From Escherichia phage 4E10: 64,000 bases of DNA. The stretch lies in sequence record OQ689735.1. One strand, written 5' to 3'. The position numbers were made by a program, and so were the translations under genes. The notes below the pieces were generated by a model, which was given only the letters and a program-made list of their open reading frames with translations, ran no database searches and was not told where the DNA came from. Below, piece by piece: positions 4,144 through 45,168 of the stretch. Positions within the stretch are counted from its first letter, which is position 1, and each line of letters begins with the position of its first letter.

Positions 4144-4219
4144 TGGTCGAGGCAGTAGGGATCGAACCTACGACCTAGGACTTAGAAGGTCCTTGCTCTT
4201 CCTTCTGAGCTATGCCCCG
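4144..4219 (-). tRNA. tRNA-Arg (anticodon UCU)
   Basis: manual fold: 7-bp acceptor, D and T arms (GGTTCGATCC), anticodon loop CUUCUAA, CCA encoded. Confidence 0.8.
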
Positions 4220-4223
4220 TAAT

Positions 4224-4299
4224 TGGGGTGACCGATGGGAGTCGAACCCATGACTACGAGAATCACAATCTCGAGTTCTACCAACTGAACTACGGCCAC
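4224..4299 (-). tRNA. tRNA-His (anticodon GUG)
   Basis: manual fold: acceptor GUGGCCG/CGGUCAC, C73, anticodon loop UUGUGAU, T arm GGTTCGACTCC, CCA encoded; no encoded G-1. Confidence 0.7.
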
Positions 4300-4412
4300 A
4301 TTAATACCTACTCCAACAATCAAGATGTCTTCACACGAAATTAAGAGAAGAGTGATCAGTTCAACCCTATAATCGCGTCAAGTAGATATTAATGTGACAG
4401 TTGTCACAAATT

Positions 4413-4487
4413 TGGCGGACGTGATAGGATTCGAACCTATAACCAATCGCTTAACAGGCGATCGCTCTGCCATTGAGCTACACATCC
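4413..4487 (-). tRNA. tRNA-Asn (anticodon GUU)
   Basis: manual fold: anticodon stem ATCGC/GCGAT, loop CUGUUAA, T arm ATAGGTTCGAATCCTAT, CCA encoded. Confidence 0.8.
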
Positions 4488-4491
4488 AAAT

Positions 4492-4578
4492 TGGTGGGGA
4501 GTGATGGAGTCGAACCACCCGAGTCGCAATGACAATGAATTTACAGTCCACACCGCTACCTCTACGGGATAACTCCCC
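4492..4578 (-). tRNA. tRNA-Tyr (anticodon GUA), long variable arm
   Basis: manual fold: acceptor GGGGAGU/ACUCCCC, anticodon loop CUGUAAA, variable arm GUCAUUGCGAC, CCA encoded. Confidence 0.7.
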
Positions 4579-4591
4579 TTAATTCTTAATT

Positions 4592-4666
4592 TGGTGGCCC
4601 TGGGTGGAATTGAACCACCATCTGGCGATTATGAGTCGCTTGCTTGAACCTTCCAGCTACAGGGCC
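4592..4666 (-). tRNA. tRNA with CAU anticodon (Met, or lysidine-modified Ile as recalled for the T4 CAU tRNA)
   Basis: manual fold: acceptor GGCCCUG/CAGGGCC, anticodon loop CUCAUAA, T arm GGTGGTTCAATTCCACC, CCA encoded. Confidence 0.75.
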
Positions 4667-4667
4667 T

Positions 4668-4743
4668 TGGTGCTGATTGACGGAATCGAACCGCCGACCT
4701 TCTCATTACAAGTGAGTTGCTCTACCTACTGAGCTAAATCAGC
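4668..4743 (-). tRNA. tRNA-Thr (anticodon UGU)
   Basis: manual fold: acceptor GCUGAUU/AAUCAGC, anticodon loop CUUGUAA, CCA encoded. Confidence 0.8.
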
Positions 4744-4748
4744 AAAAC

Positions 4749-4838
4749 TGGCGGAGGCGATAGGATTTGAACCTATGAGTCGCCGGAGCGACTGCCGGTT
4801 TTCAAGACCGGTGCATTAAACCACTCTGCCACGCCTCC
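4749..4838 (-). tRNA. tRNA-Ser (anticodon UGA), long variable arm
   Basis: manual fold: anticodon stem CCGGU/ACCGG, loop CUUGAAA; 2 nt from tRNA-Pro, consistent with a dimeric precursor. Confidence 0.8.
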
Positions 4839-4840
4839 AG

Positions 4841-4914
4841 TCTCCATACAAGGATTTGAACCTTGGACCTCCTGATCCCAAATCAGGCGCTCTACCAAAC
4901 TGAGCTACACGGAG
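4841..4914 (-). tRNA. tRNA-Pro (anticodon UGG), CCA not encoded
   Basis: manual fold: anticodon stem CCUGA/UCAGG, loop UUUGGGA; 3' trailer is not CCA. Confidence 0.75.
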
Positions 4915-4924
4915 TAAATTAAAT

Positions 4925-4998
<74 letters not shown>

Positions 4999-5003
4999 AA
5001 ATT

Positions 5004-5090
5004 TGGTGCGAGAAGTGGGACTCGAACCCACAAGGAAATCATTCCGCAGCATTTTAAGTGCTGTGCCTTTACCAATTTGACCATTCTCGC
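5004..5090 (-). tRNA. tRNA-Leu (anticodon UAA), long variable arm
   Basis: manual fold: acceptor GCGAGAA/UUCUCGC, anticodon loop CUUAAAA, CCA encoded. Confidence 0.8.
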
Positions 5091-5091
5091 G

Positions 5092-5164
5092 CTGGGAATA
5101 AAGGACTCGAACCTTTGCATCCTGGAATCAAAATCCAGTGCCTTACCAACTTGGCTAATTCCCA
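5092..5164 (-). tRNA. tRNA-Gln (anticodon UUG), CCA not encoded
   Basis: manual fold: acceptor UGGGAAU/AUUCCCA, anticodon stem CUGGA/UCCAG, loop UUUUGAU. Confidence 0.75.
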
Positions 5165-40927: not shown

Positions 40928-41206
40928 TCAAAATGTAATTTCTAACCAATCACCATCACGCTGATCACTATTGACTTTAAAGCTAAATCCTTCTTTTCTC
41001 AGCCAATCACCAATTTCTTCAGTAATCAATTTATCACGAGCAATACAATAATAACTAAAATGCGTTTTACCTCGTTCAGCTGCTTTATTAGCAAGTTCCG
41101 AAAAATCTTTAATAAAACATTCTAGCTTAAACTGTTTACTTTTGAATGCTTTTTCGCGTAATTGATTAGCAAAAGATTCATTTTCATAAAGATCATACTG
41201 TTCCAT
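40928..41206 (-). CDS. hypothetical protein
   Basis: 92-aa ORF between rnlB and hoc. Confidence 0.55.
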   Translation of the reverse strand: MEQYDLYENESFANQLREKAFKSKQFKLECFIKDFSELANKAAERGKTHFSYYCIARDKLITEEIGDWLRKEGFSFKVNSDQRDGDWLEITF

Positions 41207-41408
41207 TTTTCACCTTTTTATTGATATGTCTTTTTCTATAGACAACTTTTTCTCGAGTTTCAAATTTATTCTTAGCAGTCATAGCTCGAGCCCATAATAC
41301 AGCCACTTCTTTTGCCTGTAAGTTTAATTCACGAGCAATTTCAATGAATGACTTTCCAGACTCATGAAGAGTAAACACCACAACCTCAGTTCTCATAATC
41401 AATCTCAT
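41193..41408 (-). CDS. hypothetical small basic protein, possible helix-turn-helix
   Basis: 71-aa ORF; SGKSFIEIARELNL resembles an HTH. Confidence 0.5.
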   Translation of the reverse strand: MRLIMRTEVVVFTLHESGKSFIEIARELNLQAKEVAVLWARAMTAKNKFETREKVVYRKRHINKKVKNGTV

Positions 41409-41497: not shown

Positions 41498-42916
41498 TTA
41501 TGGATAGGTATAGATGATACCAGTTTCTAAAGCAGTTTTATGAATGATATATCCATTACGCGATTCTTGGACATCAACTTCTGGATAGTCTTTCATCATC
41601 TTCTGAAGAGTGTAACGATGCAGGTAGTATTTACTATCTGAATCTTCAGTTTTCCAATCTTTACCTTCTTCAGTCATTTTTTGAATTTCATCCATAACCC
41701 ACCAACCGCACCAGATATAAGCTGAGCTACGATGTGGAAGAGGATGAACATAAGGTAATTCACCTTCTGGTTCCGGAGCAACTTTATCAGTCACTTGAAC
41801 TTGACCTGTGGCTTTAACTGTTTTACTATCATAGTCAGTTGCTGTAACGACAGCAGTAACTTCAATAGTTTGACTTCCAATAGATGAGGTATCAACAGTA
41901 TATACGTTAGTTGACCCTTCCACAGGAGAAGAATCTTTCTTCCATGAGTAAGTAATTTGTGCTGCTTCAGGTGCGCCAGTAACATTAGCAGTAAATGTAG
42001 CCGAAGCATCTTGCTGAACATTAATAGAAGGAGGAGTCAATGTAACCTGTGGATTCATTGTCTTCTTATTAACTGTCAATGATACTTCATTGGAAGTAAC
42101 TGTTTTTGCGTCATAATCCGTTGCTGTTACTTGGGCTACGCATTTAATTCTTTTTACTCCACTTGTAGTTGGAGTATAGTTAAATGTAGAGTTAGTTTCT
42201 CCACCAACTTGTGAATCATCTACATACCACTGATACGTGGCAGACGCTCCATCAGGTTGAGAAACTAAAGCAGCAGTAAATTGAACCGGGGTTCCAATTA
42301 CTCCAACAGCAGGACTAGCAGGAGTTACTGCTAAGGTAGTTGTCTGTGTCTTTTTATTAACCGTCAATGATACTTCATTAGAAGTAACTTCCTTTGCATC
42401 ATAATCTGTCGCGGTTACTTGAGCTACACACTTAATTTTTTTAACTCCGCTTGTGGAAGGAGTGTAATTGAATGTAGCAGAAGTTGCTTCGCCCACAGGA
42501 GAACCGTCAACGTACCATTGATACGTAGCAGATGCACCTGATGGCTGTGAAGCTAAGGCAGCGGTAAATTCAACAGCTGTTCCGATTACTCCTTCTGGAG
42601 GACTATTAGGAGTTACTGCTAAGGTAGTTGTCTGTGTCTTATTTTGAACTGTGATAGTTGTAGTAACTGTAGCTGTTTCAGCTTCAGCTTCTGGAACTGG
42701 GTTTGTTGCAACTACTTTAATAGTCTTTTGACCGGCAGGTCCTTTTAGTACATAGCTAAAAGTTGCTGACGTTTCTTCCTGCGGAGCGTCGTCTACAGTC
42801 CAAGCATATGTAATAGGTCCATCTCCAGTTTGACCACTGGGTGTAGCAGTAAACTGCTGAGTCTGATCTATAACTCCAGTAGGTGTTTTAGGAGTTATAT
42901 CAACGGTAAAAGCCAT
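41498..42916 (-). CDS. hoc: highly immunogenic outer capsid protein with an extra duplicated Ig-like domain
   Basis: 472 aa (T4 Hoc recalled as 376 aa); tandem Ig-like repeats with a 96-aa unit duplicated; terminator after the stop. Confidence 0.85.
   Translation of the reverse strand: MAFTVDITPKTPTGVIDQTQQFTATPSGQTGDGPITYAWTVDDAPQEETSATFSYVLKGPAGQKTIKVVATNPVPEAEAETATVTTTITVQNKTQTTTLAVTPNSPPEGVIGTAVEFTAALASQPSGASATYQWYVDGSPVGEATSATFNYTPSTSGVKKIKCVAQVTATDYDAKEVTSNEVSLTVNKKTQTTTLAVTPASPAVGVIGTPVQFTAALVSQPDGASATYQWYVDDSQVGGETNSTFNYTPTTSGVKRIKCVAQVTATDYDAKTVTSNEVSLTVNKKTMNPQVTLTPPSINVQQDASATFTANVTGAPEAAQITYSWKKDSSPVEGSTNVYTVDTSSIGSQTIEVTAVVTATDYDSKTVKATGQVQVTDKVAPEPEGELPYVHPLPHRSSAYIWCGWWVMDEIQKMTEEGKDWKTEDSDSKYYLHRYTLQKMMKDYPEVDVQESRNGYIIHKTALETGIIYTYP
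42061..42636. repeat. tandem direct repeat, 2 x 288 bp, inside hoc (duplicated Ig-like domain)
   Basis: unit 42061-42348 and unit 42349-42636 align along their length with scattered substitutions, in frame (96 codons each). Confidence 0.8.
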
Positions 42917-42925
42917 AAGTTATCC

Positions 42926-43606
42926 TTATTTTAATGTTACGAAAGAAGAATTGCGTGTTTCACGAATTAGAACTGATCCGTCACGATTAATGTAGTAAAT
43001 TAAGCTAAATAAAGTTTGGTGTGCCGACGCGTGTTCAAAACTAGTTGGGTGAGATTTCCAATCCGGAGTTTCAGCAATCCACTGGTAAATCCACCAAGGA
43101 ACAGTGCAAAATCCTGGATTTTTTCCAATCAGCTGAAGATTCGGGCTAAAGTTTTCCGGAAGAGTAAATACAGACGGCTTTTCAGATTCAATAATCTCAG
43201 CTACAGCCTGTTCGAATTTTTCTTCAACGAAAGGAGTATCTTCAATCAAAATATTGGTATTTTCAGGAATTTTATCCGTTTCTACGACTTCAATTTTAAT
43301 GTCAGATTTAACCGGAGAATCAATCAGAAGTGCTGCTTCTGGATTGACTTCTTCATCGTCATTTTTTAACCCCTCTGCAGCATCAGCAGCATCGATTAAG
43401 TCTTTAATAGATAACCCATCAGTCTCTGGCATAGGTTCACTAGCGAGCTTCTGGAGGGCTTCTTCAATATCAACAACGATATTATCAAAAGATTTATTCT
43501 TTTTGACTTTTATACCAAACTGTTCAGCATATTCAGCTAATTTAGCTTTAGCTTCTTTATTATCATCAAGAGCCTTCAGCTCTGCAATATAATCTTTATC
43601 TATCAT
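42926..43606 (-). CDS. inh: prohead protease inhibitor-like protein
   Basis: 226 aa; position between hoc and uvsW as in T4. Confidence 0.7.
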   Translation of the reverse strand: MIDKDYIAELKALDDNKEAKAKLAEYAEQFGIKVKKNKSFDNIVVDIEEALQKLASEPMPETDGLSIKDLIDAADAAEGLKNDDEEVNPEAALLIDSPVKSDIKIEVVETDKIPENTNILIEDTPFVEEKFEQAVAEIIESEKPSVFTLPENFSPNLQLIGKNPGFCTVPWWIYQWIAETPDWKSHPTSFEHASAHQTLFSLIYYINRDGSVLIRETRNSSFVTLK

Positions 43607-43619
43607 AATATTTCCTCAG

Positions 43620-43627
43620 TATAAATA
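43620..43627 (+). promoter_or_regulatory. late promoter for uvsW
   Basis: TATAAATA 30 bp upstream of the ATG in the inh-uvsW divergent region. Confidence 0.55.
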
Positions 43628-43656
43628 TAGATATATTTATTACATGGTATTTAGAC

Positions 43657-45168
43657 ATGACTGACATTAAAGTACATTTTTATGATTTTAGTCACGTGAG
43701 AATTGATTGTGAAGAAAGTACATTTCATGAACTCCGTGATTTCTTTAGCTTTGAAGCTGATGGGTATCGTTTTAATCCGAAATACAAATATGGTCACTGG
43801 GATGGACGAATCCGTCTTTTAGATTATAATCGTCTTCTTCCATTCGGCTTAGTCGGGCAAATTAAAAAGTTCTGTGATAACTTTGGCTATAAAGCCTGGA
43901 TTGACCCACAAATTAACGAAAAAGAAGAATTATCAAGAAAAGATTTTGATGAATGGATTTCTAAATTAGAAATCTATTCAGGAAATAAAAGAATTGAACC
44001 ACACTGGTATCAAAAAGATGCAGTGTTCGAAGGATTAGTTAATCGTCGTAGAATTCTTAATCTTCCAACATCCGCAGGTAAATCTTTAATTCAAGCTTTG
44101 CTTGCTCGATATTATTTGGAAAATTATGAAGGTAAAATTCTTATCATTGTTCCAACAACTGCTCTGACAACTCAGATGGCTGATGACTTTGTTGACTATC
44201 GTTTATTCAGTCATGCAATGATAAAGAAAATCGGCGGTGGAGCATCAAAAGATGATAAATATAAAAATGATGCACCAGTCGTTGTTGGTACATGGCAAAC
44301 TGTAGTAAAACAACCGAAAGAATGGTTCTCACAGTTTGGAATGATGATGAATGATGAATGTCATCTTGCTACAGGAAAAAGTATTTCATCTATCATATCA
44401 GGTTTAAATAACTGTATGTTTAAATTTGGTTTGTCTGGTTCATTACGTGATGGCAAAGCTAATATCATGCAGTATGTTGGAATGTTTGGTGAAATATTTA
44501 AGCCAGTAACGACTTCTAAATTAATGGAAGATGGACAAGTAACTGAGTTAAAAATTAATAGTATTTTTCTTCGCTATCCCGATGAGTTCACTACTAAATT
44601 AAAGGGAAAAACTTACCAAGAAGAAATAAAAATTATTACTGGACTCAGTAAAAGAAATAAATGGATCGCTAAATTAGCTATTAAGCTTGCGCAAAAAGAT
44701 GAAAACGCTTTTGTCATGTTTAAGCATGTATCACATGGTAAAGCTATTTTCGATTTAATTAAAAATGAATACGATAAAGTTTATTACGTATCAGGGGAAG
44801 TTGATACCGAAACCCGCAATGTAATGAAAACCTTAGCTGAAAACGGTAAAGGAATAATTATAGTAGCTAGTTATGGTGTATTTTCTACTGGTATTTCAGT
44901 TAAAAATCTGCATCACGTTGTTTTAGCACACGGTGTTAAATCTAAAATTATTGTATTGCAAACAATAGGTCGCGTATTACGTAAGCATGGTTCTAAAACA
45001 ATCGCAACAGTCTGGGATCTTATAGATGATTGCGGTGTTAAGCCAAAATCTGCTAATACGAAAAAGAAATACGTTCATTTGAACTATCTTTTAAAACACG
45101 GCATTGATCGTATTCAGCGCTACGCAGATGAAAAATTTAATTACGTAATGAAAACAGTTAATTTATAA
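43657..45168 (+). CDS. uvsW: RNA-DNA and DNA-DNA helicase
   Basis: 503 aa; SF2 helicase DECH box (MMNDECHLATG); late promoter upstream. Confidence 0.95.
   Translation: MTDIKVHFYDFSHVRIDCEESTFHELRDFFSFEADGYRFNPKYKYGHWDGRIRLLDYNRLLPFGLVGQIKKFCDNFGYKAWIDPQINEKEELSRKDFDEWISKLEIYSGNKRIEPHWYQKDAVFEGLVNRRRILNLPTSAGKSLIQALLARYYLENYEGKILIIVPTTALTTQMADDFVDYRLFSHAMIKKIGGGASKDDKYKNDAPVVVGTWQTVVKQPKEWFSQFGMMMNDECHLATGKSISSIISGLNNCMFKFGLSGSLRDGKANIMQYVGMFGEIFKPVTTSKLMEDGQVTELKINSIFLRYPDEFTTKLKGKTYQEEIKIITGLSKRNKWIAKLAIKLAQKDENAFVMFKHVSHGKAIFDLIKNEYDKVYYVSGEVDTETRNVMKTLAENGKGIIIVASYGVFSTGISVKNLHHVVLAHGVKSKIIVLQTIGRVLRKHGSKTIATVWDLIDDCGVKPKSANTKKKYVHLNYLLKHGIDRIQRYADEKFNYVMKTVNL

Follow-up and report, generated by a model that had tools for sequence, protein, structure and literature searches.

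The hoc gene of Escherichia phage 4E10 carries two 288-bp units repeated head to tail. An earlier reading of the sequence alone (the sequence-only reading) took this arrangement for a relatively recent duplication that had added a 96-aa Ig-like module to a T4-like Hoc and lengthened its capsid-decoration fibre. Is the repeat real, how old is it, and is the longer fibre peculiar to this phage? We addressed these questions in a 64,000-nucleotide stretch of the 4E10 sequence (OQ689735.1; hereafter "the window") and in the hoc genes of related phages. Our best explanation, which we regard as highly probable, is that the window hoc is a two-unit allele that is widespread in T4-like (Tequatrovirus) phages and not a new duplication.

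The 472-aa ORF that contains the repeat is hoc. Its product matches PHROG 1149 ("Hoc-like head decoration") with an E-value of 2.2e-140 and T4 Hoc in the PDB (5vf3 chain Z, 376 aa) with an E-value of 1e-214, and has Pfam matches to PKD, Ig_2, Ig_3, and I-set domains. The gene order in the window is rnlB, 24.2, 24.3, hoc, inh, uvsW, as in T4T, UGKSEcP1, and RB69; hoc thus has inh and 24.3 as its neighbours in the late-gene head region, which is the conserved position of Hoc. At the protein level the window Hoc is 100% identical to the NCBI entry for Escherichia phage 4E10, and about 24 kb around the gene are ~98% identical to several Tequatrovirus isolates. The protein is acidic (pI 4.68, net charge -18 at pH 7), as is T4 Hoc (pI 4.68, charge -15), and an acidic pI of about 4-5 has been given as a property of Hoc (PMC10385173).

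The tandem repeat is recovered by two programs. Tandem Repeats Finder reports it at 42059-42640 with a period of 288, 2.0 copies, 80% matches, 1% indels, and a score of 747, and an ungapped repeat search pairs 42059-42346 with 42347-42634 at 79% identity. Two in-frame, head-to-tail 288-bp units are therefore confirmed, and the coordinates first claimed for them (42061-42636) are off by a few bases. At an offset of 288, 227 of 288 bases in hoc match (78.8%) and the units differ at the other 61 positions. When the codons of the gene are shuffled (100 versions), the same offset yields 100.7 +/- 6.2 matches (maximum 117), which places the repeat about 20 standard deviations above this expectation; other in-frame offsets in hoc give at most 91 matching bases. 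In the protein, residues 93-188 and 189-284 are identical at 80 of 96 positions (83%) with an offset of exactly 96 residues, which keeps the repeat in frame. Exact identity between units 1 and 2 of the window extends over 33 nt at most, at the unit start.

Tandem repeats can be mis-assembled from short reads, and the sequence-only reading had asked for long-read confirmation that the duplication is no assembly artefact, in which a single unit would have been spuriously expanded. However, the 61 differing positions mean that reads can be placed unambiguously, the frame is intact with both copies under purifying selection (see below), and the same architecture recurs in many independently assembled isolates and in metagenome contigs. 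With copies that are 21% divergent and an architecture shared this broadly, the probability of an artefact is negligible and we exclude it from further consideration.

The domain plan of the window Hoc is D1-D2a-D2b-D3-C, as compared to D1-D2-D3-C in T4 (Table 1). Residues 89-376 of T4 Hoc are colinear with residues 185-472 of the window protein in an alignment to 5vf3_Z. The T4T record and 5vf3_Z both give 376 aa for T4 Hoc, so the length first given for it was right and the difference of 96 aa equals one unit. D1 of the window is 77-83% identical to D1 of T4T, CM8, and UGKSEcP1, and D3 is 88% identical to T4 D3. Residues 377-472 differ from T4 residues 281-376 by few substitutions and include the motif E451-S-R-N-G455; ESRNG has been described as highly conserved in Hoc (PMC10385173). 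Nearly all columns of this C-terminal domain are invariant across the 44 homologues that we aligned for structure prediction.

Table 1. Features of the hoc locus in the window, with positions counted from the first nucleotide of the 64,000-nucleotide stretch.
Feature	Position	Strand	Extent	Evidence or remarks
hoc CDS, highly immunogenic outer capsid (head decoration) protein	41498..42916	(-)	472 aa + stop	ORF, PHROG 1149, T4 match, synteny
Ig-like D1	42641..42916	(-)	aa 1-92	weak unit-HMM match (30.6 bits); beta-sandwich, pLDDT about 85-93
Repeat unit 1, Ig-like D2a, "type 1"	42353..42640	(-)	aa 93-188	in domain phase, head to tail with unit 2; type 1 at 24/24 diagnostic sites; pLDDT about 90
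Repeat unit 2, Ig-like D2b, "type 2", orthologue of T4 D2	42065..42352	(-)	aa 189-284	in domain phase; type 2 at 22/24 diagnostic sites
Ig-like D3	41777..42064	(-)	aa 285-380	weak unit-HMM match (35.4 bits); Pfam Ig_3/I-set at residues 289-374
C-terminal capsid-binding domain	41501..41776	(-)	aa 381-472	near-identical to T4 Hoc 285-376; PHROG 21694, E 1e-40
Intrinsic-terminator-like hairpin directly 3' of the hoc stop codon	41476..41493	(-)		AAGGGGCTTCGGCCCCTT then T-rich tail

An AlphaFold model of the window Hoc, built on the 44 homologues, contains four beta-sandwich domains (residues 1-91, 93-188, 189-284, and 285-376) with pLDDT mostly >90 and a C-terminal domain of low confidence (pLDDT 41-67). 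The additional 96 aa are indeed an Ig-like module, given that both the Pfam PKD/Ig matches and the four confident beta-sandwiches of the model describe a complete Ig/PKD-like fold. The top Foldseek matches of the model are multi-Ig proteins, with an rmsd of ~11 Å to extended rods (4p99, 5t9t, Ig/cadherin-like) versus >50 Å for horseshoe-shaped four-Ig structures. This preference of the predicted model for extended multi-domain rods is in line with the linear fibre that has been modelled for T4 Hoc (PMC10385173), and the longer fibre proposed by the sequence-only reading is a reasonable expectation from it. Of the 16 amino acid differences between the units, 11 fall in loops of the model, an enrichment that is not significant when loops make up 48% of the unit.

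One close comparison is T4 Hoc itself (376 aa; PDB 5vf3, 8t1x; model of Fokine et al. 2023, PMC10385173), which is the same gene at the same genomic position. T4 D2 is 95% identical in amino acid sequence to window unit 2. Relative to T4 Hoc, the window protein has a type-1 D2 (unit 1) inserted between D1 and the T4-like D2, has four Ig domains and not three, and its net charge is more negative by three. In T4, three Ig-like domains and the C-domain together form a 180 Å fibre, and domains 2 and 3 bind E. coli (PMC10385173). The window gene encodes four Ig-like domains mounted on a conserved C-terminal domain that would anchor one Hoc at each capsid hexamer center. Because the C-terminal domain is almost identical to that of T4, we infer attachment at the gp23 hexamer center; the protein would be expected to sit as one monomer per gp23* hexamer center, at 155 per capsid, and to be dispensable for growth. 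The fibre would be about one Ig domain (roughly 40-45 Å) longer than that of T4, or about 220-225 Å if length scales linearly, and would carry D2 twice, in non-identical copies; D2 is one of the two domains for which binding to the E. coli surface has been reported. As a plausible consequence, the weak and reversible adhesion proposed for Hoc, and its proposed role in electrostatic dispersion, would change in reach and avidity.

To place the repeat in time, we compared units within and between phages. We took 288-nt units from 38 Tequatrovirus-type hoc genes, of which 23 have one unit, 12 have two (including the window), and 3 have three. Unit 1 and unit 2 of the same genome are 75-80% identical in nucleotide sequence in all two-unit genomes, whereas identity between phages is higher for orthologous units, at 87% (unit 1 to unit 1) and 89% (unit 2 to unit 2). 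For the two units of the window, the Nei-Gojobori method gives a dS of 0.99, a dN of 0.106, and a dN/dS of 0.11, as compared to a dS of 0.35-0.37 for orthologous units. This divergence is unevenly distributed: dS between units 1 and 2 is 0.66 at the unit ends, which is about the orthologous level, versus 1.56 in the center, and a pS of 0.76 in nt 70-213 of the window's units marks the central part as saturated. First units are separated from later units in 200 of 200 bootstrap replicates among 14 multi-unit genes, and in 185 of 200 when only the central part is used. From these paralogue and orthologue distances and the positional clades, it follows that the duplication predates the spread of the two-unit alleles. 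It is older, by a wide margin, than the diversification of the two-unit alleles seen today. The substitution rates also indicate that both D2 copies are kept functional by purifying selection.

These results bear directly on the view that a T4-like Hoc of four domains gained a fifth through a recent, lineage-specific duplication. Such an event would fit the ease with which the units can still be aligned (79% nt, 83% aa), and the D2 of RB69 (Mosigvirus), the closest outgroup in our comparison, is equidistant from the two window units (53% and 56%), so that the duplication does lie within the Tequatrovirus-type hoc lineage. However, a duplication private to one lineage should leave paralogues closer to each other than orthologues are, and we find the reverse: the dS of about 1.0 between units is roughly three times the divergence of orthologous units, each unit has orthologues across many phages, and units cluster by position (bootstrap 200/200). 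Moreover, the two-unit form is present in about one third of the matching phage records, including RB27, PP01, AR1, teqskov, pSs-1, and fPS-90, and NCBI already contains an identical protein. A recent origin is refuted by the distances between paralogues and between orthologues, and we consider it very improbable. Our preferred explanation is instead that D2a and D2b would derive from one old in-frame tandem duplication of a 288-nt D2 module, after which both copies would have been held by purifying selection as their synonymous sites diverged to saturation in the central part.

How, then, did the tandem form come to coexist with single-unit genes? We identified 24 diagnostic sites that part type 1 from type 2, of which 23 are within nt 70-241 of the unit. 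Protein-level typing of 120 homologues offers three robust diagnostic residues only, too few to place breakpoints, and DNA was used instead. All two- and three-unit genes start with type 1 and continue with type 2, and this fixed order suggests that the tandem arrangement arose once. The D2s of the 23 single-unit genes do not form one clade; they include pure type 1, pure type 2, and mosaics of both polarities. T4, RB10, LH2, and others have a type-2 D2. In the central part, the D2 of T4(T) is closer to window unit 2 than to unit 1 (96.5% versus 74.3% identity), while window unit 1 is 96.5% identical to the single D2 of CM8 and 74.3% to that of T4. CM8, ECML-134, mg44, and others have a type-1 D2 that is 96.5-97.2% identical to window unit 1. 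Given a type-2 D2 in T4 and a type-1 D2 in CM8, the "added" module of the window is unit 1 when compared with T4 and unit 2 when compared with CM8. Mosaic single units, of either polarity or with several switches, are found in KAW1E185, IMGVR3, fPS-2, PHB12, mg42, SH-1, ECO07P1, and ZCEC15.

Other features of hoc also speak to exchange between alleles. The longest exact identity tracts are located at the unit ends, and the D1 variants VIDETK and VIDQTQ are each seen with one, two, and three units. Together, the mosaics, the similar unit ends, the identity tracts, and the shared D1 variants show that recombination and gene conversion within hoc are pervasive. The alleles differ by whole units, contain mosaic units, and have homogenized unit ends, as expected of a domain-scale copy-number polymorphism driven by unequal homologous recombination. 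We therefore read the copy-number differences as follows: D2 number and type are an old polymorphism that is reshuffled by homologous recombination between units and between co-infecting phages, probably by unequal crossing-over or gene conversion. Unequal recombination is the probable mechanism of copy-number change, and an identity tract of only 33 nt is a poor recombination substrate, so such events must be rare.

Certain alleles are less easily accommodated by simple exchanges. The mosaics that switch from type 2 to type 1 (mg42, fPS-2, and PHB12) do not arise from a simple in-register deletion, and additional allelic exchange or gene conversion must be invoked for them whichever form of hoc came first. 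In addition, the middle unit of the three-unit genes is not the 5'-type-2/3'-type-1 chimera that one unequal crossover predicts. We also considered a deletion-only model in which all single units are 5'-unit-1/3'-unit-2 chimeras, and dropped it on account of the opposite-polarity and multi-switch mosaics among the 23 genes.

We next asked how common each form is. A megablast search with the window hoc returned 678 phage records, almost all from Tequatrovirus, and in 595 of them the match extends over at least 80% of the gene. Systematic sampling along the ranked megablast matches gave 53 near-full-length rows, which represent records and not independent isolates. The two-unit form accounts for 18 of these rows (about 34%; matches span 1419-1425 bp in one piece), and the one-unit form of T4 for 32 (about 60%; matches span about 1131 bp in two overlapping pieces). 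The remaining 3 rows (about 6%) are three-unit forms as judged from the match pattern, and YUEEL01 was confirmed at 568 aa. About 40% of T4-like isolates have fibres of four or five Ig domains instead of the reference three-Ig fibre. A unit HMM run on 120 homologues among the matches listed finds the plan D1 + n x D2 + D3 + C in all of them, with n = 1 in 81, n = 2 in 30-31, and n = 3 in 8-9. The corresponding lengths are 376 aa (one D2), 472 aa (two), and 567-570 aa (three), in steps of 96 aa. Tequatrovirus-type Hocs with only two Ig domains (L050 and L054) are rare. Further relatives were few: IMG/VR held only 5 close ones, a metagenome scan added 8, and a scan of GTDB genomes found no close hoc relatives.

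In addition to the six phages named above, ECO07P4 and BF15 have the same architecture and length as 4E10. The two-unit Hocs other than 4E10 are 88-96% identical to the window in protein and 88-96% in nucleotide sequence over the whole gene, and they differ by allelic substitutions and small conversion patches only; for instance, unit 1 of teqskov has a type-2 patch at nt 129-137. The three-unit Hocs (568-570 aa; UGKSEcP1, UGKSEcP2, YUEEL01, and metagenome contig L040) share D1, D3, the C-terminal domain, and the 96-aa module with the window and have one D2 more. Their D2 series begins with a type-1 unit, followed by variants of type 2; the third unit is a variant type 2 that also serves as unit 2 of pSs-1.

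The sequence-only reading had allowed that its view would fail if the five-domain form were the common ancestral state. As to the first half of this proviso, the form is indeed common, making up about a third of the GenBank phage records that matched; that it is also ancestral to the T4 form has somewhat less than an even chance, as set out next. One alternative is that multi-unit hoc is ancestral for the Tequatrovirus type and that the three-Ig form of T4 was derived by repeated unequal recombination that deleted units in register. Several observations argue for this scenario. The single-unit D2s are not a clade but include type 1, type 2, and mixed forms. A pure type 2, as in T4, is the expected product of a crossover in the conserved nt 1-69, and a type 1 with the type-2 last site (CM8, ECML-134, mg44) is the product of a crossover in nt 214-288; consistent with this, 22 of the 23 single units have the unit-2 state at site 288. 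Diverged tandem paralogues also explain two deep types more simply than long-lived alleles do. That the dominant single-unit classes are crossover products of a two-unit gene thus favors repeated collapse from a multi-unit gene. On the other hand, a single joining of two old single-unit alleles would leave the same single-unit classes, site 288 adjoins D3 under both models, mosaics from type 2 to type 1 exist, and we found no outgroup with orthologous type-1 and type-2 units, the second D2-like domain of RB69 being ~40% identical to either. On balance, we give derivation of the T4 form by collapse close to, and slightly less than, an even chance. Overall, the data fit equally well with duplication followed by divergence and repeated collapse, or with two old D2 alleles that were joined once by unequal recombination.

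More distant Hocs show how often whole modules have changed in number. RB69 Hoc (471 aa) also has four Ig-like domains, and its third domain shares only ~40% identity with its own D2 and with the window units, so that its extra domain is not orthologous to that of the window. As an outgroup for polarity RB69 is uninformative, with a D2 equidistant from the two units and an extra domain that is too diverged (~40%). The equidistance does indicate that the split of type 1 and type 2 arose within the Tequatrovirus-type hoc lineage. In another Tevenvirinae lineage (N-terminus MAYSV...; L005-L012 and L046-L057), the extra domains are copies of D3 and not of D2, and lengths form a ladder of about 280, 374, 468, and 565 aa. 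Hoc homologues with 1 to 10 Ig domains have been described, including RB49 Hoc, with a three-Ig crystal structure (3SHS), and the Hoc of Serratia phage Muldoon, with 10 Ig domains (PMC10385173). Taken together, these comparisons show that hoc has repeatedly gained and lost whole Ig modules.

A more far-reaching possibility is that the number (2 to 5 Ig domains) and type of D2 in Hoc are an actively maintained, trans-species balanced polymorphism, in which frequency-dependent selection tunes fibre length and D2 loops and the three-Ig Hoc of T4 is a secondary collapse product of a multi-unit ancestor. If true, the targets of selection could include the binding of different bacterial or mucosal glycans and the evasion of antibodies. 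The persistence of two deep D2 types (dS >1) in both single- and multi-unit genes is compatible with this idea, as are the parallel length ladders in two Tevenvirinae lineages combined with purifying selection on every copy. We nonetheless regard it as unlikely.

The hoc repeat in the window is an ordinary, known feature, an allele that is both old and common. That Hoc varies in its number of Ig domains has been published in general terms, and the 472-aa Hoc has been deposited for many isolates and carries little weight as a discovery. In the literature that we searched, we found nothing specific on a four-Ig Hoc in Tequatrovirus, on a D2 copy-number series, on two D2 types, or on unequal recombination in hoc. 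What is mildly new, in a descriptive sense, is the existence of two deep D2 sequence types that multi-unit genes carry side by side, always in one order, and that recombination has mixed into mosaics in single-unit genes, the class to which the reference T4 gene belongs. T4 phage display and vaccine work rely mainly on Hoc as a scaffold, and Hoc is central to the "adherence to mucus" idea, and users should be aware that the fibre varies and that T4 D2 represents one of two deep sequence types only. The natural series of one, two, and three units offers ready variants for examining the effects of fibre length and D2 type on mucin and cell binding, virion aggregation, and antigen presentation.

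Lastly, we inspected the sequences that flank the gene for signals of transcription. The late promoter TATAAATA does not occur on the hoc strand from hoc to uvsW, and sigma-70-like matches around hoc are at chance level only. Downstream of the gene, a terminator is annotated in fPS-90, fPS-2, and KAW1E185 at the post-hoc position that matches the hairpin listed in Table 1.

The third repeat unit of the 568-aa hoc genes (L022, L036 and L040 among the compared sequences) has a distinctive variant of the type-2 pattern; in pSs-1 (L030), a phage with two units, the second one shows the same variant. The shared pattern suggests that three-unit hoc was born from recombination between two different two-unit alleles. 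At the other end of the size range, two metagenome contigs (L050 and L054) encode Hoc of the Tequatrovirus type that is only 282-283 aa long and has just two Ig-like domains, D1 and one D2/D3-like domain, ahead of the C-terminal domain. This two-Ig form is the lowest rung of the Tequatrovirus-type length ladder.

A second Tevenvirinae Hoc lineage, with an N-terminus beginning MAYSV or MAYTV, is found in IMG/VR and metagenome contigs (L005-L012 and L046-L057). This lineage has a separate length ladder of about 280, 374, 468 and 565 aa, in which the added domains copy D3, not D2; for example, domains 3 and 4 of one member (L006) are 78% identical.

Comparison across genera suggests exchange of hoc sequence. 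HX01 (L035), PHB12 (L095) and mar005P1 (L097) are classed as Mosigvirus, yet their hoc is of the Tequatrovirus type with a single unit and has 86-89% nucleotide identity to that of the window. For RB69 (L037), also a Mosigvirus, the hoc match to the window is confined to the last 273 nt. From these alignments, genera seem to have swapped the segment of hoc that codes for the Ig domains.

Hoc is dispensable in the laboratory. In Escherichia phage ECML-134 (L031, JX128259.1), the hoc annotation is split into two CDS and the translation stops after only 305 aa, which reflects either a Hoc-inactivating frameshift or a sequencing error.

Features of the window outside hoc
Feature	Position	Strand
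tRNA cluster, 11 genes	4144-5164	-
ORF homologous to T4 24.2	40928-41206	
ORF homologous to T4 24.3	41193-41408	
inh	42926-43606	-
uvsW	43657-45168	+

On one side of hoc, inh and uvsW are separated by only 50 nt (43607-43656). In T4T, the homing-endonuclease gene segE sits between these genes, whereas it is missing there both from the window and from the three-unit phage UGKSEcP1. This looks like ordinary presence or absence of a mobile endonuclease gene. On the other side, the 24.3 and 24.2 ORFs share 14 nt (41193-41206), as they do in T4T; compact packing of this kind is ordinary.

Elsewhere in the window, the tRNA genes are those for Arg, His, Asn, Tyr, Met/Ile(CAT), Thr, Ser, Pro, Gly, Leu and Gln. 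T4 has eight tRNA genes and lacks those for His, Asn and Tyr; the set of the window phage is therefore expanded.
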